A stretch of DNA of 39,389 bases from Escherichia phage vB_EcoP-Ro103C3lw: sequence record MN067430. One strand, written 5' to 3'. Below the pieces are notes generated by a model. It ran no database searches. It was not told where the DNA came from and saw only the letters and a program-made list of their open reading frames with translations. Shown one piece after another: positions 1-39,389 of this stretch (its first letter is position 1; every line of letters begins with the position of its first letter). The position numbers and the translations under genes are program-made.

Positions 1-191
1 TCTCACAGTTCAAGAACCTCAAGTCTCCCCCCATAGGGTCACTCTCAGTCAGACCAAAGGCCCTACCCCTAGACCGAAGGTCTAAACCTAAAGTCTTTGA
101 CCAGAAGTCAGGACCAGAAGTCTACCTCAAGGGCCTATATCTAGTGGTTGGGACCAGAGGTCGGGACTATATGTTGTGTCACTGAGTCTCT
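1..191. repeat. Left direct terminal repeat (DTR), 191 bp
   Basis: Bases 1..191 are identical to 39199..39389 by direct comparison; T7-like genomes carry terminal redundancy of this size (T7 160 bp). Confidence 0.95.
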
Positions 192-537
192 ATCTGTATT
201 AGCCTAGAGTCATCACCTCAGGTCATCACCTACAGTCTCACTACCTACAGTCAATCTATCAGTGATGTGACACCTACAGTCAAAGACCTACGGTCCGGTA
301 GACACTCAGATTGACCTATCGTTTATCAGAGACCTTAGGTCTAGTCTCACAGGTTATCGTTATAGTCTCTGTTTAGCAGTCAGGGAGACTATCAGTCTGA
401 CTAGGGTTATTGTTGGTGTCTACCAACTGGACTCTTATTATCCATAGTCAGGACTTAAAGTCCATCATCTGTAGTCGTTATTGGTCTACCTTATAGAGTC
501 ACTGGACTACTGTATAAATTAACATGATAAATAGTTG

Positions 538-566
538 TTGACGTTTAGTCTGACCTATGAGACTAT
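538..566 (+). promoter_or_regulatory. Host sigma70-type early promoter, T7 A1-like
   Basis: TTGACG (538..543), 17-nt spacer, GACTAT (561..566); spacer tttagtctgacctatga closely resembles the T7 A1 promoter spacer as recalled. Confidence 0.55.
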
Positions 567-678
567 AGCTTCCGTCAACACGACACGGCAACAACCGGAT
601 AGTGAAGACGCCGGGTCATCCCGGTTAAGTAGACAGCCTGATAAGTCATACGAACAACAGGCAGATGACAGAAAGTAG

Positions 679-708
679 TTGACAAGATGTACCGACTTAA
701 AGTAGTAT
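679..708 (+). promoter_or_regulatory. Host sigma70-type early promoter, T7 A2/A3-like
   Basis: TTGACA (679..684), 18-nt spacer, TAGTAT (703..708). Confidence 0.5.
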
Positions 709-1165
709 GGACCACATCGAAGCAACGGTGACGACCGACACTAAATGGTCTACCTGAAGTCCACTGACTGAAAGGAATGCTCTTTAATAATATGACCGTG
801 TATTGATAGGCTTACTAACAACATAGGGTAACTATCATGGATTACAATCAGTTGAATTGGGAATGGTTGGCATACGAGGCCGCCTATGAAGATATGCTGA
901 ATGCGAGTGCATATGTTTGCAGTGATTGCGATGCAATAAGTATTCATGAGGCGATAACAGACCATTTAGCATTTTACAGGAAGTTTGTAGCGTGAGATAG
1001 CTGGCACTAGCCAGCCTATCACTACACGGTCATGCTCTTTAACAATCTGGATAAACTCTTAATGTGCGCCGATAGCGACTAACTACAGGGTCTTTGAGTC
1101 TACATCTGAAGGCCCTGACTGATAGTCACTAACATACACACAAACAACTTTGAGAGGATATAACT

Positions 1166-1498
1166 ATGGAACGTAACGCTAACGCATACTATGAGCTGCT
1201 GGCTGCAACCGTTGAAGCATTTAACGAGCGTATTCAGTACGACGAAATAGCTGAAGGCGATGATTATCACGATGCGCTGCATGAGGTCGTAGACGGTCAG
1301 GTTCCGCACTATTACCACGAGATTTTCACGGTGATGGCTGCTGATGGTATAGACCACGAGTTCGAAGACTATGGGCTAATGCCTGATACCAAGGATGTGA
1401 CGCGTATATTGCAAGCTCGCATCTATGAGGCGCTTTATAACGATGTGCTTAATAACTCGGATGTGGTCTGGTTTGAGGCTGAAGAGGACTGCGAGTGA
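1166..1498 (+). CDS. ocr: Ocr-like DNA mimic, anti-restriction protein (T7 gp0.3 homolog)
   Basis: 110 aa, very acidic; motifs [52 protein letters not shown] match T7 Ocr as recalled; SD gagagg upstream of ATG. Confidence 0.9.
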
Positions 1499-1653
1499 TG
1501 GTAACTTATGGTCTCTGCCAGAACCATGTAGCCAACGCCCGGATTATGGTCAAGACCGGGCAGTTAAACCACGATGCGACTATGCGTCACCTGAAGGCGG
1601 TCTATGAGGGACGCAAGCGTATTCACGACAGCTTACACGATGAGGGCAAGTAA
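1498..1653 (+). CDS. Small early protein, 51 aa, possible gp0.4-like
   Basis: ATG overlaps the ocr stop (TGATG); same length as T7 gp0.4 with weak pattern similarity (YGL...LK..YE); not in the ORF track because it is under 60 aa. Confidence 0.45.
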   Translation: MVTYGLCQNHVANARIMVKTGQLNHDATMRHLKAVYEGRKRIHDSLHDEGK

Positions 1654-1655
1654 AC

Positions 1656-1781
1656 ATGTACCAGATAACGTATAGCAGTGAACAGGCGTTCTACGATGGG
1701 TGCTACGAGATGATGAGGCGCGGGGCTTGCTACGTGGCTAATCACCAGAGCCTGACCATAACGCTGACGGGTGGTTACTGA
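1656..1781 (+). CDS. Hypothetical small early protein, 41 aa
   Basis: ATG 3 nt after the previous stop; open frame to TGA at 1779..1781; tight packing typical of T7 early genes. Confidence 0.35.
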   Translation: MYQITYSSEQAFYDGCYEMMRRGACYVANHQSLTITLTGGY

Positions 1782-1851
1782 GTGATAGACGAGAGGTCAT
1801 CGACTGATAGGTGGCCTCAAAGATTGCCACTTACATTGATAGGAGTTAACT

Positions 1852-1941
1852 ATGAACATCGGTTACTGGGTATGCTTATCTCCGGTCATCTTTCTGATAG
1901 CTTGGGGACTTCTGGACGCAATCAAGCGAGGGTCATTCTAA
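1852..1941 (+). CDS. Hypothetical small hydrophobic peptide, 29 aa
   Basis: SD AGGAG 7 nt upstream of ATG 1852; translation MNIGYWVCLSPVIFLIAWGLLDAIKRGSF. Confidence 0.4.
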   Translation: MNIGYWVCLSPVIFLIAWGLLDAIKRGSF

Positions 1942-2138
1942 TGAGCTGGGTACTTATGGGTATCTTCGGCTATGGACTTATCGTCTACGTACTGGTGAGT
2001 GACATCAACAAGGCGCGTAAAGTCTACAAATTCAACTATGTACGTATGGGTCGCTGGACTGTACGTCAACCTAACGGGCGATTCATGCGCAACTTAGCAA
2101 ACGTCTGGGATATAGCAACACTTGGGAGCAAACTGTAA
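1941..2138 (+). CDS. Hypothetical small membrane protein, 65 aa
   Basis: ATG overlaps the preceding stop (TAATG); hydrophobic stretch WVLMGIFGYGLIVYVLV; the supplied ORF 1782..2138 extends it upstream from a GTG that lacks an SD. Confidence 0.45.
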   Translation: MSWVLMGIFGYGLIVYVLVSDINKARKVYKFNYVRMGRWTVRQPNGRFMRNLANVWDIATLGSKL

Positions 2139-2464
2139 TGAACAAGTCATACGGGATTAATCTGGTACACTCTATGGACGCAGACATGCAAATGTTAAGC
2201 CTACTGGCTACCGGGTATCGTCACGGAACGTCAAGTCACTCCGCACGTCAACAGCAGGAGAGGGACCGGGTACTGCAAGCAAGACTCCGGGCTGAGGGCC
2301 ATAAGTCCGAGCTGATGTGTCTGGCGTATGGTGGACGACCAATCACCGATGATGGTAAACTTCTGGTCTCAGGCTGGAAGGCGATAGACCAACGGTCAAC
2401 CATCAAGCACACGACTCATGGTGACTTCAGTCATCTCCACGCTAACCCGCTGATATGCAAGTAG
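2138..2464 (+). CDS. Hypothetical early protein, 108 aa
   Basis: ATG overlaps the upstream stop (TAATG); sits where T7 has gene 0.7 but is far shorter and has no recognisable kinase motifs. Confidence 0.5.
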   Translation: MNKSYGINLVHSMDADMQMLSLLATGYRHGTSSHSARQQQERDRVLQARLRAEGHKSELMCLAYGGRPITDDGKLLVSGWKAIDQRSTIKHTTHGDFSHLHANPLICK

Positions 2465-2469
2465 TAATT

Positions 2470-2492
2470 ATTAAACCCTCACTATAGGACTC
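2470..2492 (+). promoter_or_regulatory. Phage RNAP promoter, immediately upstream of the RNAP gene
   Basis: attaaaccctcactataggac; +1 G at 2487. Confidence 0.75.
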
Positions 2493-2560
2493 AAGGTCTA
2501 AGACTTCAGTTAAAGACCAAAGAGACTTAAGTGAAAGACTAACAAACAAGGACTTTAAGT

Positions 2561-5227
2561 ATGAGCGTCATTCAGCTTGAGAAGCATGACTTCTCGGACA
2601 TCTCCAACGCTATCGAGCCGTTTAACATTCTGGCTGACCACTACGGGCAGGACCTCGCAGTCAAACAGCTTCAGCTTGAGCATGAGGCATACACTGAAGG
2701 CGAGCGTCGTTTCATCAAGAATCTTGAGCGTCAGGCTGAGCGCGGGGGGCTGGCTGATAATCAGGTCGCAAGACCATTGATGCAAACTCTGGTCCCTAAA
2801 CTGGCGCAAGCCGTCAAGGAGTGGCACGAGACCCAAGGGTCAACCCGTGGGAAACCTCAGGTCGCCTTCCTGAAGCTGAGCACCGAGTCGAAACCTCGTG
2901 CGCTACTGGTCCAACCCGAGTCGGTGGCGGTCATCGTCCTGAAGATTGCGCTCAGTAAGCTGGTCAAGCCTGAAGGCGTACCGATAACGCCGATGGCCTC
3001 CGCGATTGGTCGCACACTGGAGGATGAAATCCGTTTCGGTCGCATCCGTGACCAAGAGCAAGAGCACTTCAAGAAGACCATCGCCGAGAACCTGAAGAAA
3101 CGCGCTGGCGTGGCCTACAAGAAAGCCTACATGCAAGCGGTCGAAGCCTCCATGCTGGACCAGAAGCAACTGGATGATGCGTGGGGGACTTGGAGTCCTG
3201 ACGAGGCGGTCCACGTAGGAATAAAGATGCTGGAGCTGCTGATTCAATCCACACAACTGGTAGAGCTGAAGCGACACAACGCTGGGAACGTAGCGTCAGA
3301 CGTCGAGATGGTCCACCTGTCAGACTTCTGGGCCAAGAAGATGGCTCAGCGAGGCTACAGCCTTGCGGGTATCGCTCCGGTCTACCAGCCGTGCGTCGTG
3401 CCTCCACGCCCTTGGAACTCAGTGGTCGGTGGTGGGTACTGGGCTAAAGGTCGCAGACCTCTCCCGCTGATGCGCTTAGGGTCGAAGGCTGCTATCGCTC
3501 GCTACGAGGAAGTTTACATGCCTGAAGTCTACGAGGCGGTGAACATCATTCAGCAGACACCGTGGAAGGTGAATAAGAAGGTGCTGGACGTAGTGAACAT
3601 GGTCGAGAAGCTGAACAATACGCCTATCGCAGACATCCCGCAGATGGACCCGATGAAGCCTGAGGAGTACGCAGGTGAGACCGAGGAAGAACTTAAAGCG
3701 TGGAAGAAAGCTGCTGCTGGAATCTATCGCCGCGAGAAGGCCCGACAGTCCCGCCGCTTGTCCCTGAGCTTCATCGTCGGACAGGCGAACAAGTTCTCTC
3801 AGTTCAAGGCCATCTGGTTCCCGTACAACATGGATTGGCGCGGTCGAGTCTACGCGGTCCCGATGTTCAACCCGCAAGGCAACGACATGCAGAAGGGTCT
3901 GCTGACTCTGTCAGTCGGCAAGCCAATCGGTGCGGACGGCTTCAAGTGGCTGAAGGTTCACGGTGCAAACTGCGCGGGTGTCGATAAAGTCACCTTCGAG
4001 GAGCGCATCAAGTGGGTCGAAGACAACCACGACAACATCCTCGCGGCTGCTAAGAGTCCGATGGATAGCATCGACTGGTGGGGCAAGTTAGACTCTCCGT
4101 TCTGCTTCCTCGCGTTCTGCTTCGAGTATGCCGGGGTCATGCACCACGGGCTGAGCTACTCCTGCTCACTGCCTATAGCGTTCGATGGGTCCTGCTCTGG
4201 GATTCAACACTTCAGCGCGATGCTCCGTGACCACGTTGGTGGACATGCGGTCAACCTAACGCCAAGCGGGAAGGTCCAAGACATCTACCGCATTGTGTCC
4301 GACCGGGTGGAAGAACAGCTTAAGGAACTACTGGTAAACGGTAGCGACAACGAAGTCAAGACCTTCGAGGACAAGAAGACAGGCGAAATTACTGAACGTC
4401 TGGTCCTTGGAACTCGTGAGCTGGCCCGTCAGTGGCTGACCTACGGGATGTCACGCACGGTCACTAAACGCTCGGTCATGACTCTGGCCTACGGGTCGAA
4501 GGAATACGGGTTCGCAGACCAAGTGTTTGAGGATACCGTGATGCCAGCGATTGACAACGGCAAGGGCGCGATGTTCACGGACCCAAGCCAAGCGTCCCGC
4601 TTCATGGCTAAGATGATTTGGGATGCAGTGAGCGTGACCGTAGTTGCTGCGGTAGACGCGATGAAGTGGCTCCAAGGCGCTGCTAAACTGCTGGCTGCTG
4701 AGGTCAAGGACAAGAAGACCAAAGAGGTCCTGAAGCCTTGCCTCCCGGTTCACTGGGTCACGCCTGATGGCTTCCCGGTCTGGCAGGAGTATCGCAAGAA
4801 GGACACCACACGTCTTGACCTGATGTTCCTCGGGACTTTCCGTCTCCAGCCGACAGTCAACAAGGGGTCGAGCAAGGAGCTGGACAAGCACAAGCAGGAG
4901 TCAGGCATCAGCCCGAACTTTGTACACTCACAAGACGGCAGTCACCTGAGGAAGACTGTGGTCCACACCCACCGCAAGTATGGCGTGATGTCCTTCGCAG
5001 TGATTCACGATAGCTTCGGGACCATCCCGGCTGACGCTGAGTTCCTGTTCAAAGGTGTCCGTGAGACGATGGTCGAGACCTACCGCGACAACGATGTGCT
5101 GCAAGACTTCTACGAGCAGTTCGCGGACCAGCTTCACGAGAGCCAGCGCGACAAGTTGCCTGAGCTTCCAAAGCGCGGTAAACTGAACATCGAAGACATT
5201 CTGTTATCTGACTTTGCATTCGCCTGA
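2561..5227 (+). CDS. gp1: Single-subunit DNA-directed RNA polymerase (T7 gp1 homolog)
   Basis: 888 aa; long conserved blocks versus T7 RNAP, e.g. WFPYNMDWRGRVYAVPMFNPQGNDM, HGANCAGVDKV, PIAFDGSCSGIQHFSAML, KRSVMTLAYGSKE, NFVHSQDGSHLRKTVV, ends SDFAFA. Confidence 0.97.
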   Translation: MSVIQLEKHDFSDISNAIEPFNILADHYGQDLAVKQLQLEHEAYTEGERRFIKNLERQAERGGLADNQVARPLMQTLVPKLAQAVKEWHETQGSTRGKPQVAFLKLSTESKPRALLVQPESVAVIVLKIALSKLVKPEGVPITPMASAIGRTLEDEIRFGRIRDQEQEHFKKTIAENLKKRAGVAYKKAYMQAVEASMLDQKQLDDAWGTWSPDEAVHVGIKMLELLIQSTQLVELKRHNAGNVASDVEMVHLSDFWAKKMAQRGYSLAGIAPVYQPCVVPPRPWNSVVGGGYWAKGRRPLPLMRLGSKAAIARYEEVYMPEVYEAVNIIQQTPWKVNKKVLDVVNMVEKLNNTPIADIPQMDPMKPEEYAGETEEELKAWKKAAAGIYRREKARQSRRLSLSFIVGQANKFSQFKAIWFPYNMDWRGRVYAVPMFNPQGNDMQKGLLTLSVGKPIGADGFKWLKVHGANCAGVDKVTFEERIKWVEDNHDNILAAAKSPMDSIDWWGKLDSPFCFLAFCFEYAGVMHHGLSYSCSLPIAFDGSCSGIQHFSAMLRDHVGGHAVNLTPSGKVQDIYRIVSDRVEEQLKELLVNGSDNEVKTFEDKKTGEITERLVLGTRELARQWLTYGMSRTVTKRSVMTLAYGSKEYGFADQVFEDTVMPAIDNGKGAMFTDPSQASRFMAKMIWDAVSVTVVAAVDAMKWLQGAAKLLAAEVKDKKTKEVLKPCLPVHWVTPDGFPVWQEYRKKDTTRLDLMFLGTFRLQPTVNKGSSKELDKHKQESGISPNFVHSQDGSHLRKTVVHTHRKYGVMSFAVIHDSFGTIPADAEFLFKGVRETMVETYRDNDVLQDFYEQFADQLHESQRDKLPELPKRGKLNIEDILLSDFAFA

Positions 5228-5240
5228 GGAGGCACTAACT

Positions 5241-5441
5241 ATGAAATTCGCACACAAGCAAACTGGCGTTAAAGGCGGTACTCAAATCGTGACTGTGACC
5301 GAGCACAACGGAAAGGGTCTGGCGAAGACCACGATTATCCCGACCGAGATGTCCAAGCAACTTAACGTCCCGTTCAAATGGCTGGTGCAGAAGGTCGAAC
5401 AGGCCCACGAACAGGCCCTAACCGAGGCAGCAACGAAATGA
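5241..5441 (+). CDS. Hypothetical protein, 66 aa
   Basis: SD aggagg 5 nt upstream of ATG 5241; no homolog recognised. Confidence 0.5.
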   Translation: MKFAHKQTGVKGGTQIVTVTEHNGKGLAKTTIIPTEMSKQLNVPFKWLVQKVEQAHEQALTEAATK

Positions 5442-5520
5442 CAGACCTTAAGTGGCTGGCCTTATGGCTAGCCTTCTTAGCAGTGTACATTTTAATCCAA
5501 CGCAGAAGAGGCTAATCACC

Positions 5521-5976
5521 ATGTTCAACCGTAAACTGAAAGCACGTATCGCATCTCTTGAAGCAACCGTCCAGCGTCAGGACCGCAACCTTGAGCTGGC
5601 TAACCGGGAGCACTCACGACTGAGGGCCAAGATTCAGAAGGCTGAAGAGAAACGTGAAGTCGACCCATTCCGTGTGAAGCGCATGGTCGGCCTGAAGTTC
5701 AAGGCGCTGTTCAATGGTCTATACCAGCCTACTGAGTTCAAGACCGGACCGGGGCCGTGTGGCAAGACAGTTACGCACTTCACCACGAGTCGGACCGAGC
5801 GTGAGCTGACCATCCACCAGCACCACACGGATGGCTCTCAGAAGGACTTCGAGTATCGACTGAGTGACATCGACGGTCGCATCCAGTACGACTACGAGAC
5901 CGTGCTAGTCTACGGAGAAGAGGCAGAACGGGAGCGAGCACACTACGTCTTCCTGAGACGTCAACGGTTCGCTTAA
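5521..5976 (+). CDS. Hypothetical protein, about 151 aa, with predicted coiled-coil N-terminus
   Basis: Open frame 5452..5976; ATG 5521 chosen as the most likely start (MFNRKLKARIASLEATVQRQDRNLELANREHSRLRAKIQKAEEKR); no homolog recognised. Confidence 0.5.
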   Translation: MFNRKLKARIASLEATVQRQDRNLELANREHSRLRAKIQKAEEKREVDPFRVKRMVGLKFKALFNGLYQPTEFKTGPGPCGKTVTHFTTSRTERELTIHQHHTDGSQKDFEYRLSDIDGRIQYDYETVLVYGEEAERERAHYVFLRRQRFA

Positions 5977-5994
5977 ACCCTCACTATAGGATTA
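5972..5994 (+). promoter_or_regulatory. Phage RNAP promoter (gene 1.1 position)
   Basis: gcttaaaccctcactataggatt; +1 G at 5989. Confidence 0.8.
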
Positions 5995-6062
5995 GACTAA
6001 AGGTCGCTGACTTCCAGTGGCCTTCATGATTAACCCTAAACTCAATCACTGGAGATTTAACC

Positions 6063-6242
6063 ATGTATCAGAACACCATCAACTTCGAGCGCATCCGTGA
6101 ACGTCAGCAGACTGAAGGATACATGCCTAAGGGCCGCAAGCTGAACAAGACCAAACGTGGCGGTGGCGTCAAGGGTGCTTTCCGCAACGCTGAAGGTAAA
6201 GACTCTCTGGTCAACCAAGAGAAGTATTTCGTAGGAGCATAA
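6063..6242 (+). CDS. gp1.1: gp1.1-like small basic protein, 59 aa
   Basis: KGRKLNKTKRGGG motif resembles T7 gp1.1 (KGRKLNKTKRD); not in the ORF track because it is under 60 aa. Confidence 0.7.
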   Translation: MYQNTINFERIRERQQTEGYMPKGRKLNKTKRGGGVKGAFRNAEGKDSLVNQEKYFVGA

Positions 6243-6246
6243 CGCT

Positions 6247-6510
6247 ATGGGCCGACTTTACAGTGGCAACCTCAACGCTTTCAAAGCAGCGTGTAACAGG
6301 CTCTATCAGCTAGACTTCGCTGTCATTTCTCAGGAGTTTCAAGACCTTGCGTCACGCCAAGAGTGCATGAGACTCAGGGTCGAGGACCGGGCTGGTAACA
6401 TATTCGCTCTTGAGTCCTTCGCACACTACGACGAAGACGTACTGTACAATACTGCAACCGACTTCCTTAATGGTCTCGCTGACCAACTCGACACATGGAG
6501 CAAATCATAA
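6247..6510 (+). CDS. gp1.2: gp1.2-like inhibitor of host dGTPase
   Basis: 87 aa; MGRLYSGNLNAFKAA...RLRVEDRAGN...HYDEDVLYN matches T7 gp1.2 as recalled. Confidence 0.85.
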   Translation: MGRLYSGNLNAFKAACNRLYQLDFAVISQEFQDLASRQECMRLRVEDRAGNIFALESFAHYDEDVLYNTATDFLNGLADQLDTWSKS

Positions 6511-7571
6511 TGACAACGACTATCAAAACTAACCCACATCGAGCTGTAGATTACTCTGAGTCAGGCGTTACGAAAGCACTGGCAGCAGCCGGGTCGCTGG
6601 AAGCTGAAGTGAAGTATGATGGTGTGCGGCTGAACCTCCCGGTATTCCCTACGGGTGAGACCCAATGGTTGAGCCGTGAGTCTAAACCTCTTCCGGCCCT
6701 GAGCTGGCTATCAGTCCTGACCAACATCGACAACATCGTGGAAGACCAACAGAGGGCCAGCGACTGGCGGTGGTTCCTGAAGCAAGCTGGCTACGAAGGA
6801 ACTGGCCTGATGATTGATGGTGAGGTCATGGTCAAGGGTGTAGACTTCAATACGTCTTCAGGTCTCATCCGAACGAAGTGGTTGAAGCCAAGCAACGAGG
6901 ATTTTGCTGAGTGCTATCCCGGCAGAGGAACTAAAGTCCCATTCTGGCTGGCAACACGGAACATCAAGGTAGTCGTCTATGGTATCGTGGACCTTAACGT
7001 CATCCTCGACCCGAAAGCCGAAGGTCCTATCCATAGCGTCACACGCCTGAAGGCCGAGGCTATCGTCCCTCTCCTCCAGAAATACTTCCCGGAAATCGAC
7101 TGGGTTCTGTCTGAGTCACACACGGTCTATGACCTTGAGTCGCTCAACTCCCTGTACGAACAGAAGCGTCTGGAAGAACACGAGGGTCTGGTAGTCAAGG
7201 ACCCACTGGGTAAATACAAGCGTGGCAAGAAGTCAGGCATGTGGAAGATGAAGCCTGAGGAGACCATCGACGGGACCGTGTGTGGCCTCGTGTGGGGGAC
7301 TCCGGGTAAGGCCAACGAAGGTAAGGTGATTGGCTTTGAGGTTCTGCTTGAGGATGGCATGGTGGTTAACGCCTGTGGTCTGACTGAAGAACAGAAGGAC
7401 GAGTTCACGGAAGCCTGTAACACTGATACATATATTCTCGGTGGAATCAATCCATACGAAGGCTGGCAGTGTGAAGTCCTCTTCATGGAGCGGTTCCCAG
7501 ATGGTTCCCTCCGTCACCCTAGCTTCAAGTGTTGGCGAGGTACGGAAGACAATCCAACCGTTAAGAGTTAA
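6510..7571 (+). CDS. gp1.3: ATP-dependent DNA ligase (T7 gp1.3 homolog)
   Basis: MTTTIKTNPHRAV...EVKYDGVR (adenylation lysine motif KxDG)...MIDGEVMVKGVDFNTSSGLIRTKW...EGLVVKDPLGKYKRGKKSGMWKMKPE...SLRHPSF...RGTEDNP; ATG 6510 overlaps the gp1.2 stop. Confidence 0.92.
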   Translation: MTTTIKTNPHRAVDYSESGVTKALAAAGSLEAEVKYDGVRLNLPVFPTGETQWLSRESKPLPALSWLSVLTNIDNIVEDQQRASDWRWFLKQAGYEGTGLMIDGEVMVKGVDFNTSSGLIRTKWLKPSNEDFAECYPGRGTKVPFWLATRNIKVVVYGIVDLNVILDPKAEGPIHSVTRLKAEAIVPLLQKYFPEIDWVLSESHTVYDLESLNSLYEQKRLEEHEGLVVKDPLGKYKRGKKSGMWKMKPEETIDGTVCGLVWGTPGKANEGKVIGFEVLLEDGMVVNACGLTEEQKDEFTEACNTDTYILGGINPYEGWQCEVLFMERFPDGSLRHPSFKCWRGTEDNPTVKS

Positions 7572-7581
7572 CTAAACGTCA

Positions 7582-7617
7582 ACCCAGTGGTCTTCGCGGA
7601 CTGCTGGGTTTCTTTGC
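7582..7617 (+). terminator. Intrinsic terminator after the ligase gene (T7 TE position)
   Basis: Hairpin acccag...ctgggt followed by tttctttg. Confidence 0.55.
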
Positions 7618-7628
7618 GTCTGGGCCTC

Positions 7629-7651
7629 TTTAAACCCTCACTATAGGACAA
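7629..7651 (+). promoter_or_regulatory. Phage RNAP promoter
   Basis: tttaaaccctcactataggaca; +1 G at 7646. Confidence 0.8.
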
Positions 7652-7677
7652 CCCTAACCGACCAAAGGAGAAACCTT

Positions 7678-7932
7678 ATGTCTAAGAACTTAATGTTCAA
7701 CCGTTTCAGTCAGACCTTCCACCTGTCCAACAATCCGTTTGCTTGCATTAAGCGTAACGAGAAGGTGGGCTTCTTCGGGAAGGCCGTTAAGCTGGCACCT
7801 ACAGTCTACGCTCTGATTGTTCCGAGCAAAGTAGAAGAGGCTCGCCAGAAGAAAGAGACCAGCGTACCAGTGGTCTACACCAAGTGGCCTCGCGTTCGTC
7901 TGGCGCTGGAGTTCATCAAGGAGGAGTTCTAA
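7678..7932 (+). CDS. Hypothetical protein, 84 aa (gene 1.5/1.6 position)
   Basis: SD aaggag before ATG 7678; position-based assignment only. Confidence 0.55.
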   Translation: MSKNLMFNRFSQTFHLSNNPFACIKRNEKVGFFGKAVKLAPTVYALIVPSKVEEARQKKETSVPVVYTKWPRVRLALEFIKEEF

Positions 7933-8309
7933 TGGCTCATTATTGTGTGGACTGTCAGGAAGACTATACGGATTGCACCTGTCACCTGAAATATCAGGCC
8001 CCAGCGCCAAGTTGTTCACCAACGTATACTGGCGGGTCTGCGGACTATTACCAAGTGCCTATCACCCATACCACGACTCCCGGCCGCCCGGACTACATCG
8101 CTGAATGCAACGACATTATCGAAGCTCTCGGTATGAACTTTGCGGAAGGCAATGCGTTCAAGGCACTGTGGCGTCGAGCTGCTCAACGGACTTTAGGTCT
8201 GCGTAAGGCTGGCGCTAAGGACGATGGGCTATACGATGCTGAGAAGGTCGAGTTCTTCGGTGCTCGTCTGGTAGCCCAAAGCAAGGCGGTAGGTCATGAC
8301 TCCAAGTAG
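7932..8309 (+). CDS. Hypothetical Cys-rich protein, 125 aa (gene 1.7 position)
   Basis: ATG overlaps the upstream stop (TAATG); N-terminal cluster CVDCQEDYTDCTCH suggests a zinc ribbon; shorter than T7 gp1.7. Confidence 0.5.
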   Translation: MAHYCVDCQEDYTDCTCHLKYQAPAPSCSPTYTGGSADYYQVPITHTTTPGRPDYIAECNDIIEALGMNFAEGNAFKALWRRAAQRTLGLRKAGAKDDGLYDAEKVEFFGARLVAQSKAVGHDSK

Positions 8310-8387
8310 CTGGTGCTTTAGGCAGTGGGTCTCAACCGGGAACGTGGACTACCTGTCCATGTACCATATGTGGAAGGAGAAAGGACT

Positions 8388-8564
8388 ATGACCGTTTACC
8401 GTGGCATCTTCGGGTCTCTGTACGCAGTGAACCAACACGGAGTCGTCTGCGTTAAGCCTGACGGTAGCGAGTGGTGCGCATCACATTACAGTGTCGAGGG
8501 ATTCCAAGACGCTATTGATAAAGGCTACATGACGGAGGTGGTCGATGCCCAAGGAGTCAACTGA
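8388..8564 (+). CDS. Hypothetical protein, 58 aa (gene 1.8 position)
   Basis: SD ggaaggag before ATG 8388; the supplied ORF begins upstream at 8325. Confidence 0.45.
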
Positions 8565-8715
8565 GAAGAAGTACATCGTGGAACTTGAAGGGCGCGTTCA
8601 GTCCTTTGACGTCCCGGTCTACGCTAAGTCTCTGGACGAGGCGACCTTGAAGGCTCAGGAATATGAAGACGCTGGCTTTGTTGTCGGACGCATTCACCCT
8701 GAGCATAAACAATAA
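8545..8715 (+). CDS. gp2: gp2-like inhibitor of host RNA polymerase
   Basis: 56 aa; [14 protein letters not shown] resembles T7 Gp2 (SFEVPIYAETLDEA); not in the ORF track because it is under 60 aa. Confidence 0.75.
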
Positions 8716-8733
8716 ACCCTCACTGTAGGACAA
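8711..8733 (+). promoter_or_regulatory. Phage RNAP promoter, variant (A to G at -4)
   Basis: aataaaccctcactgtaggaca; +1 G at 8728. Confidence 0.7.
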
Positions 8734-8758
8734 CCATTAACTTTAGGAGATTTACCCA

Positions 8759-9457
8759 ATGGCTAAAGAGCAACTGAAAACTTTCACCACTCCGGTCGCT
8801 GGTCTGGTCGAGCCGTATAGCTGGCTGAACAAGGCAGACACCAAGTTCAACGAGCGCGGTGAACACAAAGTCAACCTGACCTTCAGTCTGGATGACCCGA
8901 AAGTCCGCAAGATGATTGACGTCTTGCAGAAGATTCACGACGATGCGTATGCGAAAGCACTCGCAGACCACGAGAAGAACCCACCTCAGGTTCAGCGTGG
9001 CAAGAAGCCCATCGAACCGCGTGAAGGCGATATGCCGTGGATTGAGAATGGTGATGGTACTGTTACCCTGAAGTTCAAATGCTTTGCGTCTTACTTGAAA
9101 GACGGCAAGTCCGAGCCTATCGTATTACGGTTCTACGACACCGATGCTAAACTCATCCGTGACGTCCCGAATATTGGCACCGGGTCTAAGCTGAAAGTCA
9201 AGTTCAAAGTCCTGCCGTTCAAGTGGAACGCTGCGACTGGTGCAAGCGTTAAGCTGCAACTCGAATCCGTGCTGCTGGTCGAACTCAAAGAGTGGTCCGG
9301 TGACGGCACTGGTGGTGATGGTGGCTGGGGTGACGATGAAGACATCGGCTCCGGTGGCTACAAATCGTCTACTGACGGTGACTTCGGGTCTGACGACTTC
9401 GGTGAAGATGCCGATGGTGGCGATGACTCTGCGTCCGGTGGCGACTACGACTTCTAA
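8759..9457 (+). CDS. gp2.5: Single-stranded DNA-binding protein (T7 gp2.5 homolog)
   Basis: 232 aa, same length as T7 gp2.5; MAKEQL...EPYSWLNKAD...RGKKPIEPREGDMPW..NGDGT.TLKFKC.AS...KLQLESVLLVEL and acidic C-terminal tail ending DYDF. Confidence 0.92.
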   Translation: MAKEQLKTFTTPVAGLVEPYSWLNKADTKFNERGEHKVNLTFSLDDPKVRKMIDVLQKIHDDAYAKALADHEKNPPQVQRGKKPIEPREGDMPWIENGDGTVTLKFKCFASYLKDGKSEPIVLRFYDTDAKLIRDVPNIGTGSKLKVKFKVLPFKWNAATGASVKLQLESVLLVELKEWSGDGTGGDGGWGDDEDIGSGGYKSSTDGDFGSDDFGEDADGGDDSASGGDYDF

Positions 9458-12734: not shown

Positions 12735-12899
12735 ATGCTACGAAAACTTAAAGTCCGCTACCACACGTTCATGTACAAGTGGTGGAGCGAGGAGGCCGAC
12801 TGCCTGTCCCAAATCCTTGGAGACCAGCGGTTCAAGTCGAAGGCGTGGAAGCGCGCCAACCAGAAGTTCATGTATCACTTCCTGCGCATTGACTATTAA
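12735..12899 (+). CDS. Hypothetical protein, 54 aa (gene 4.3/4.5 position)
   Basis: SD ggagag before ATG 12735; basic and Trp-rich; not in the ORF track because it is under 60 aa. Confidence 0.4.
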   Translation: MLRKLKVRYHTFMYKWWSEEADCLSQILGDQRFKSKAWKRANQKFMYHFLRIDY

Positions 12900-12917
12900 T
12901 CCCTCACTGTAGGATAG
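12895..12917 (+). promoter_or_regulatory. Phage RNAP promoter, variant
   Basis: ctattaatccctcactgtaggat; +1 G at 12912. Confidence 0.65.
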
Positions 12918-12972
12918 ACTCAAGGCCATTCACATCGAGTGGTCTTTATGATTAGACTATAGGAGATTAACC

Positions 12973-20112: not shown

Positions 20113-20988
20113 ATGTCCCAATCAGTTTATGCCGAGTTCGGCGTTAGCTCTAATGCAATCACTGGTTCCGTCGAGGACCTGAACGAACACCAACAGTCTA
20201 TGCTGGAGAAGGACGTAGCTGTCCGTGATGGCGATGACGCTATTACCTTCAAGCAACTGGAAGCCGAGCGACAGGAAGAGGCGACCGAAGAAGAACTCGA
20301 AGTCGAGACCGATGAGGAAGAAGAGGTTGAAGAAACCGAAGACTCAGAAGGTCAGGACCAAGAGTTCGTTGAGCTGGGTGAAACTCCGAAAGAGCTGACC
20401 GAAAGTGTCACCGCTCTGGACGAGAACGAAGCGGCTTTCGACGACATGGTGTCTGCTGCTGTAGAAGCTGGCAAGGTCACTGCTGATGACATCACCGCTA
20501 TCAAGGCTGAATACGCCTCTAAAGGTGAACTGTCCGAGGCATCCTACGCTAAGCTGGCTGAAGCTGGTTACACCAAGCGTTTCGTCGATTCGTTCGTCCG
20601 TGGTCAGGAAGCTCTGGCTGAGCAGTATGCTGCGGGTGTGGTTCGCTACGCTGGTGGTGCTGAGCAGTTCAACCGCATCCTATCTCACCTTGAGGCCAAC
20701 GATAAGTCAACCAAGGAAGCCCTTGAGTCTGCAATCATCCGTAAGGACCTTGCGACCGCTAAGGCCATCCTGAATCTGGCTGGTCGTAACCTCGGTAAGA
20801 CTCGCGGTGTTGCACCTCAGCGTACTCTGACTACTCAGGGTAAACCAGCAGTCGCTGCACCGAAGGTCCAGACCGAAGGCTTCAGCTCCAAGTCTGACAT
20901 GATTAAGGCCATGAGCGACCCGCGCTATCTTCGTGATGCTGCTTACACCAACTCTGTCCGCACGAAGGTTGCTGCTTCCAGCTTCTAA
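20113..20988 (+). CDS. gp9: Capsid assembly (scaffolding) protein (T7 gp9 homolog)
   Basis: 291 aa, highly acidic with Glu-rich tract; sits between portal and capsid genes. Confidence 0.85.
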   Translation: MSQSVYAEFGVSSNAITGSVEDLNEHQQSMLEKDVAVRDGDDAITFKQLEAERQEEATEEELEVETDEEEEVEETEDSEGQDQEFVELGETPKELTESVTALDENEAAFDDMVSAAVEAGKVTADDITAIKAEYASKGELSEASYAKLAEAGYTKRFVDSFVRGQEALAEQYAAGVVRYAGGAEQFNRILSHLEANDKSTKEALESAIIRKDLATAKAILNLAGRNLGKTRGVAPQRTLTTQGKPAVAAPKVQTEGFSSKSDMIKAMSDPRYLRDAAYTNSVRTKVAASSF

Positions 20989-21009
20989 TATACCCTCACT
21001 ATAGGGAGA
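20987..21009 (+). promoter_or_regulatory. Phage RNAP promoter (strong phi10-type, before the capsid gene)
   Basis: taatataccctcactatagggagacc; +1 G at 21004; followed by a gggagacc...ggtttccc 5' stem-loop as in the T7 gene 10 leader. Confidence 0.85.
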
Positions 21010-21114
21010 CCAAGAGTTACGACTCAAGGTTTCCCTGTAACTTCAGTCCATACGGATTGGGCACAACGAAGTCACTAAACTTTATTTCTTTCATTCGAAT
21101 AGGAGAATTATCAT

Positions 21115-35826: not shown

Positions 35827-35882
35827 GTGTTAGACTCAAGGTCATCTATTGGTGGCCTTTATGATTAACACTAGGAGGTGGT

Positions 35883-39198: not shown

Positions 39199-39389
39199 TC
39201 TCACAGTTCAAGAACCTCAAGTCTCCCCCCATAGGGTCACTCTCAGTCAGACCAAAGGCCCTACCCCTAGACCGAAGGTCTAAACCTAAAGTCTTTGACC
39301 AGAAGTCAGGACCAGAAGTCTACCTCAAGGGCCTATATCTAGTGGTTGGGACCAGAGGTCGGGACTATATGTTGTGTCACTGAGTCTCT
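39199..39389. repeat. Right direct terminal repeat (DTR), 191 bp
   Basis: Exact copy of 1..191. Confidence 0.95.

Follow-up and report, generated by a model that had tools for sequence, protein, structure and literature searches.

[quoted passage not shown]

Results

The window, by which we mean the whole stretch of DNA that was analysed (39,389 bp), carries an exact 191-bp direct terminal repeat at 1-191 and 39199-39389, and is on this evidence a complete genome whose ends are native. Its first 25 kb share ~87-90% nucleotide identity with the Kayfunavirus genomes that were compared (Cronobacter phage GW1, Shigella phage ESh23, Escherichia phage Ro45lw and Citrobacter phage SH4). Judged from its sequence, the phage belongs to the Studiervirinae and is K1F-like (Kayfunavirus). 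Gene 1 (2561-5227, + strand) is an ORF that encodes an 888-aa single-subunit DNA-dependent RNA polymerase (RNAP), whose product matches PF00940 (E 1.5e-105) and PF14700 and shares 99-59% identity with the RNAPs of T7-group phages. Upstream of it lie an ocr homologue (1166-1498) and an early, gp0.38-like ORF of 108 aa (2138-2464, + strand), the equivalent of which is annotated as gp0.38 in EcoDS1, PE3-1, Dev2 and CR8. Towards the left end are two likely host sigma-70 early promoters on the + strand, one read directly from the sequence (TTGACG-17-GACTAT, ~539-567) and one scoring 10/12 (TTGACA-18-TAGTAT, 679-708); the EcoDS1 record has three host promoters annotated at equivalent left-end positions. 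Direct reading also located an early intrinsic terminator resembling TE (CCCAGTGGTC..GGACTGCTGGG followed by TTTCTTTG; 7583-7612, + strand) just ahead of the next phage promoter at 7630, and TE is annotated in EcoDS1 at the equivalent place, 3' of gene 1.3. The host-type promoters and the TE-like terminator of the window thus occupy T7-like places, and no terminator-like site was found on the + strand before gene 1. The early leader region, ahead of the first ORFs, also contains GCTCTTTAAYAAT twice (779-791 and 1034-1046; 0.05 expected), and this sequence may have a processing or regulatory role in the early region.

Between the stop codon of the gp0.38-like ORF (2464) and the RNAP ATG (2561) there is a gap of 96 nt, and the promoter lies wholly within it, 5 nt after the stop codon. 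Positions 2470-2492 (+ strand) read ATTAAACCCTCACTATAGGACTC, an exact copy of the commonest promoter form of the genome, and have the features of a T7-group promoter, i.e. a ~23-bp element (-17 to +6) with the core CACTATAG and a G at +1. The original prediction had placed a full promoter copy 69 nt upstream of gene 1 with a transcript start at 2487. The 23-mer does end 69 nt before the ATG, and the start holds as a matter of geometry, +1 being assigned to G2487 by T7-family convention, which leaves a leader of 74 nt. The 19-mer TTAAACCCTCACTATAGGA has 12 matches in the genome at three mismatches or fewer, all on the + strand and five of them exact, including that at 2471-2489; dinucleotide-preserving shuffles give a chance expectation of 0.01, and 12 matches were reached in 0 of 100 shuffles. 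The copies are near-identical, co-oriented with the genes and situated in intergenic gaps or at the 3' ends of genes. Eleven of the 12 match the places of the EcoDS1 phi promoters (before genes 1, 1.1, 1.6, 2.5, 4, 6.5, 9, 10, 13 and 17, and phiOR), the remaining one being that at 12896. The initially transcribed sequence at the pre-gene-1 site is GGACUC, compared with GGGAGA at the strongest T7-type promoters, and GGA is the commonest start among the promoter copies of the genome (8/12). No terminator-like element was found between 2487 and 2561, and the promoter-match scan found no phiOL-type phage promoter left of 2471 (1-2470).

The 74-nt leader of gene 1 (2487-2560, + strand) is the most A-rich 74-nt window of the genome (43% A), with a GC content of 36% compared with 53% for the genome, and a Shine-Dalgarno sequence, AAGGA (2549-2553), is located 7 nt before the RNAP ATG. 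Six direct copies of RRGACY, at 2487, 2501, 2514, 2523, 2536 and 2550 (spacing 9-14 nt), stand against an expectation of 0.59; no other 74-nt window of the genome has six, and six were reached in 0 of 5000 shuffles. The leader had been described as rich in short inverted repeats of the AGACTT/AAGTCT type that could form a processing or regulatory structure. AGACTT does occur twice, but AAGTCT is absent and the repeats are mostly the six direct RRGACY copies rather than inverted ones, with one complementary GGTCT at 2495. As for structure, the description applies to read-through RNA that includes the promoter core, where a hairpin is predicted, and not to RNA starting at 2487: folding from +1 was no better than that of shuffles (z 0.05) and the fold of 2400-2600 gave z -1.2, and on these values an unusually stable structure in the phage-initiated leader was rejected. 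RNAalifold on 13 leaders returned a weak consensus with no covariation, and an Rfam scan of 1-9000 at E<=1 returned zero matches. A small leader ORF was also rejected, as the leader has no ATG and its sole start codon, a GTG, opens a three-codon frame without a Shine-Dalgarno sequence.

The hairpin of the read-through RNA is imperfect, with 20 bp in 56 nt (2479-2534, + strand), its 5' arm being the promoter core UCACUAUAGGACUC and its 3' arm GAGACUUAAGUGA. It has an inner GGUCU/AGACC stem and a 2x3 internal loop (dG -18 kcal/mol, z -3.25), and its topology resembles that of a T7-like R1 (z -4.1), T7-type processing sites being intercistronic hairpins of ~18-22 bp that an internal loop interrupts. 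Because the 5' arm is the promoter core, the hairpin is complete only in RNA that reads through from upstream. Equivalent hairpins are present in K1F (z -2.68) and in Dev2-type phages (z -2.91); in the latter a T>A change at promoter position -2 is matched by a complementary A>T in the 3' arm, one compensatory change that yields a perfect 10-bp outer stem. Kosakonia phage Kc166A keeps an AUCACU/AGUGAU outer stem around a different interior, and CR8 has no promoter-core/AGUGA outer stem. RNAalifold detected no net covariation for the helix, in which most paired positions are fixed by promoter function, and in Dev2-type phages and Kc166A the MAFFT alignment of this stretch places the 3' arm out of register. 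The predicted fold makes it possible that 2479-2534 is an R1-type RNase III site.

The leader begins with GACTCAAGGTC (2488), the 5'-arm motif of the canonical R-type hairpins of this genome, which occurs five times on the + strand compared with 0.12 expected. Paired with GGYCTTYATGATTA, the copies of this motif at 5995, 12917 and 35833 build canonical R-type hairpins of the T7 style (5973-6035, 12896-12960 and 35828-35875), which are probable RNase III sites; two of them lie directly 3' of phage promoters and use promoter nucleotides in their lower stem, and the third precedes the gene 18.5 region. The 3'-arm motif was found only at 6019, 12941 and 35854 and is absent near gene 1, where the pair of arms (GACTMAAGGYC ... 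GGYCTTYATGATTA) is represented by the 5' motif only. With moderate confidence, we regard the gene-1 element as a candidate case of a recurrent promoter/R-site cassette, here with a diverged 3' arm. Hairpins over the 3' parts of promoters are common in the genome (phi1.1, z -2.9; promoter 12896, z -2.5; phi10, z -4.8), and a promoter-overlapping hairpin is a habit of the family and not a peculiarity of the pre-gene-1 site. The phi10-type promoter (20988-21040) is the sole copy with GGGAGACC, and its transcript starts with a very stable 5' stem-loop (dG -22.8 kcal/mol), as in the T7 gene 10 mRNA.

The pre-gene-1 site is widely conserved. A 161-bp query around it matched 221 phage records, all of which (221/221) align over at least 80% of the query. 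All 23 of the aligned Kayfunavirus and Caroctavirus sequences have the promoter, 70-95 nt ahead of the RNAP ATG, and eight further GenBank phages, including Kc166A, carry it too. Across a 24-sequence alignment the site and the leader are conserved in register, GGACTCAAGGTC...AAGGACTTTAAGTATG, the homologous downstream leader being conserved across Kayfunavirus. For a wider comparison, 80 IMG/VR loci with relatives of the RNAP were taken, each with a 10-kb flank, and the promoter consensus of each locus was derived from the sites downstream of its own gene 1. Where the RNAP is at least 79% identical and the flank allowed a consensus, a site of the locus's own type lies 82-109 nt before the ATG; the same pre-gene-1 site is seen by alignment in a truncated locus (L020). 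A survey of the most frequent 12-mer picked non-promoter words in two loci (L014 and L018), in both of which the alignment shows the site, and the site counts given here rest on comparison with the own consensus and on alignment, not on that survey. The original prediction had implied that a promoter at this position is unusual, and had itself allowed that routine carriage by related phages would make it unremarkable; its presence in every Kayfunavirus and Caroctavirus sequence examined, and its annotation in EcoDS1 and CR8, overturn the implied unusualness.

The sequence of the site follows the polymerase. K1F and PE3-1 have the promoter at the equivalent place in their own sequence type, TTAACTATCACTATAGGACTC, and the specificity region of the pre-gene-1 site is of each phage's own type, i.e. 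CCCTCAC, CTATCAC or AGGTACAC. The -12 to -8 region is AAACCCTCAC in the window, GW1, IJM01 and loci L015 and L023, AACTATCAC in K1F, EcoDS1 and Dev2 (K1F-type and Dev2-type loci), and GGAAGGTACAC in Citrobacter phage CR8 (locus L016, genus Caroctavirus); the specificity loop of the RNAP differs in step with the promoter type (FRLQPTVNKGSS, FNLQPTVNKGTK and VQYRPTLNLGKS). Of the computational evidence for use of the site by the phage polymerase, this co-switching over three specificity classes is the strongest. In the window the specificity-loop region is encoded at 4796-4855. The window, GW1 and Enterobacter phage 01_vB_Eclo_IJM combine a T3-like ACCCT at -12 to -8 with the loop FRLQPT..GSS, and K1F-type phages combine an ACTAT promoter with the loop FNLQPT..GTK. 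ACCCT versus ACTAT is thus, as predicted from these pairings, a natural specificity switch inside one genus.

The phages of the T7, T3 and K11 types (RNAP 59-64% identical) are organised differently. Within 600 nt upstream of gene 1 none of their loci has an own-type promoter; beyond that distance the exception is one shortened T3-like contig with a site at -624. Their first downstream promoter is located just after gene 1, and one or two phiOL-type sites are present at the left genome end, 2.4-3.8 kb ahead of gene 1. The original prediction had restricted the transcription of T7 gene 1 to host promoters; it is right in that no promoter directly precedes gene 1, but the restriction is too strong, given the phiOL-type sites. 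The 70 nt before gene 1 in these loci consist of a strongly folding R1 hairpin (z -4.1 in one T7-like locus). In six T7-like loci (L029, L030, L033 and L035-L037), TACGATTTACTA occurs just 3' of R1, ~29 nt before gene 1. It differs by two mismatches from the promoter 12-mer of these loci, TACGACTCACTA. As the mismatches fall at positions that are invariant among the promoter copies, the sequence is unlikely to be active; it could be a relic or a chance match. The left-end region of another T7-group contig (L034) contains eleven tandem copies of a 21-nt unit, AGGAACCACTGAGTATCATT..., at ~200-420, 1328-1547 nt upstream of its RNAP gene.

Discussion

The results of this analysis make it highly likely that the phage's own T7-type RNAP uses 2470-2492 as a promoter, orthologous to the pre-gene-1 'phi' of Kayfunavirus and Caroctavirus phages. 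The cognate single-subunit RNAP is encoded in the same genome, and the promoter is placed, as originally predicted, where this enzyme could transcribe its own gene. A full-consensus cognate promoter aimed at gene 1 with no intervening terminator makes self-transcription the natural reading, and the RNAP can probably boost its own production from this site. We propose a series of linked steps. Host RNA polymerase would start at the left-end sigma-70 promoters and read the early genes and gene 1 as far as TE at ~7600; given that promoters of host type lie at the left end and that no terminator precedes gene 1, it should make the first gene-1 mRNA. The first RNAP molecules would then use G2487 as the start site for transcription of gene 1 and of all that follows it, adding a self-amplifying supply of gene-1 mRNA that would be independent of the host polymerase, with a feedback strength that we can only infer, and that would survive the later inhibition of the host polymerase by a gp2 homologue. 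RNA initiated at G2487 would carry the 74-nt leader, which is A-rich, predicted to be unstructured and provided with a good Shine-Dalgarno sequence. In read-through RNA, the promoter core would instead pair with ACUUAAGUGA to give the imperfect 20-bp hairpin, at the place where the T7, T3 and K11 relatives have R1, and RNase III might cleave there. With the polymerase's own promoter upstream of its gene, no terminator between them and, by a consensus-level test only, left-end sigma-70-like sites that read into gene 1 to ignite the loop, the arrangement is, as far as its sequence goes, a natural 'autogene'.

The least ordinary features of the locus are that the promoter interlocks with an R1-like hairpin and that the leader carries an unusually dense RRGACY array, and the roles of both are putative. 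It is conceivable, although we hold it to be unlikely, that the promoter and an R1-derived hairpin are interlocked in such a way that the origin of an mRNA decides its fate. Read-through RNA would be processed by RNase III, and phage-initiated RNA would lack the hairpin because it starts inside the 5' arm, which would expose the unstructured A-rich leader; the array of six phased RRGACY repeats might then act as a platform for ribosome loading, or for the binding of a factor, from the phage or the host, that tunes the loop.

The same hairpin invites the opposite emphasis, namely that the element is mainly an R1-type RNase III processing site that separates the gene-1 mRNA from the upstream early mRNA, and that the promoter-like sequence has been kept as the 5' arm. 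The z of -3.25, the comparable hairpins of K1F and the Dev2-type phages, the classical R1 at the same position in T7-, T3- and K11-like phages, the R-type motif GACTCAAGGTC at the start of the leader and the compensatory pair of the Dev2-type phages (T>A at -2 and A>T in the 3' arm) are all consistent with it. However, the -17 to -10 part of the promoter lies outside the hairpin and is nevertheless conserved and covaries with the polymerase type, which argues that selection acts on promoter function. Moreover, the 3'-arm motif GGYCTTYATGATTA is absent here, RNAalifold lends no covariation support and CR8 lacks the outer stem. We consider a mainly RNA-processing role improbable. The two functions are not exclusive, and the hairpin is probably an add-on to the promoter.

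Only marginally less probable again is a main role of the promoter and its AT-rich leader as a transcription-activated replication origin, comparable to T7 phi1.1A/B or phiOL. In T7, an origin combines a phage promoter with a downstream AT-rich stretch that contains a primase site, and phiOL is a secondary origin. The window has no phiOL-type promoter left of 2471, such as the T7-, T3- and K11-like loci possess. Its leader, at 36% GC in a genome of 53%, is the most A-rich window, and one minus-strand TGGTC primase-type site lies within it (GACCA at 2515). Yet AT-rich stretches follow most promoters of this genome, so the leader is not distinctive in this respect, and it also functions as a translation-initiation region; an origin role, in any case, would not be exclusive of gene-1 transcription.

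That 2470-2492 is instead a host sigma-70 promoter, as the orthologous 23 bp (2874-2896) are labelled in the GenBank record of PE3-1 ('host RNAP promoter'; L001, KJ748011), or a non-functional chance or relic copy, is barely credible: the host reading was rejected because the site has no acceptable -35/-10 pair on the + strand, its sole sigma-70-like match being on the minus strand at 9/12 and at background frequency, and an exact phage-promoter consensus that is conserved over two genera and switches specificity together with the RNAP is not what chance or a relic would leave. The PE3-1 label is probably a mis-annotation, since the site is PE3-1's own phage-promoter consensus and the window has no sigma-70-like pair on the + strand at this place.

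A promoter of the phage's own type before gene 1 has been recorded previously. The EcoDS1 RefSeq entry (NC_011042) lists a regulatory feature 'promoter, phi' at 2244-2266, 70 nt before gene 1, and the CR8 record (HG818824) a 'predicted promoter' at 3356-3378 before gene 1, both orthologous to 2470-2492. A 2026 Kayfunavirus genome paper (Sparklingdew, PMC13298934) describes a promoter-type repeat at the 3' end of SPD_007, which by its numbering immediately precedes the RNAP gene SPD_008. Outside these genera, a start directly upstream of the RNAP gene of Pseudomonas phage LUZ100 (phi1) has been mapped by ONT-cappable-seq and interpreted in a positive-feedback model (PMC10134795), and autoregulation of the RNAP has been proposed for Vibrio phage phiA318 (PMC4099482). 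A literature search found no Kayfunavirus transcriptome. The pre-gene-1 promoter is a conserved trait of two genera that was already annotated, and the feedback concept was already published. As relatives routinely carry the promoter and public records annotate it, the finding is ordinary and adds little new knowledge. If active, the promoter would make the supply of RNAP independent of host transcription once infection is under way, and would be relevant to the timing of the middle genes in K1F-like phages, a group in wide use both for therapy and to obtain orthogonal polymerases.

Comparison with named systems places the window firmly among its relatives. EcoDS1, K1F, PE3-1, Dev2 and GW1 likewise have the promoter between the gp0.38 stop and the gene 1 ATG, 70 nt upstream, and the Kayfunavirus relatives share the homologous leader with its RRGACY repeats, Shine-Dalgarno sequence and start codon. 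Unlike K1F, the window, GW1 and IJM01 have ACCCT instead of ACTAT at -12 to -8, along with a different RNAP specificity loop, the sites being otherwise orthologous. CR8 also has a phage promoter in the gap between gp0.38 and gene 1, 82 nt before the ATG, but uses the third specificity (GGAAGGTACAC) and has a different leader, with a 12-bp hairpin downstream of +1. In T7, R1 occupies the intergenic position of the window's promoter, immediately upstream of gene 1, and phiOL lets the phage RNAP enter the early region, gene 1 included; the window, in contrast to T7-type phages, has no phiOL and only a diverged R-like hairpin, which overlaps the promoter. K1F- and CR8-like phages thus carry a promoter and an A-rich leader where T7-type phages have R1, and the main practical value of the finding is comparative, in that these phages have replaced the T7-type R1 with a promoter-plus-leader module.

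Two more distant members of the Autographiviridae have a comparable layout with promoter sequences unrelated to those of the window. LUZ100 has a phage-specific promoter directly upstream of its RNAP gene (phi1; PMC10134795), although its loop is coupled to a MarR-type lysogeny switch and nothing similar is present in the window. In phiA318, the phage-specific promoter phi-A8 lies upstream of the kinase and RNAP genes (PMC4099482).

An engineered circuit follows identical logic, and K1F- and CR8-like phages might offer a naturally occurring system in which to test autogene dynamics. In the synthetic T7 autogene, reportedly introduced by Dubendorff and Studier in 1991, T7 gene 1 is placed under a T7 promoter. 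The construct has been used in later work (PMC6395690, PMC1500874). As in the window, the polymerase gene stands under its cognate promoter, and polymerase from a separate source has to start the loop. Whereas the synthetic autogene was engineered, the arrangement in the window is natural, and its ignition would come from read-through by the host RNAP.
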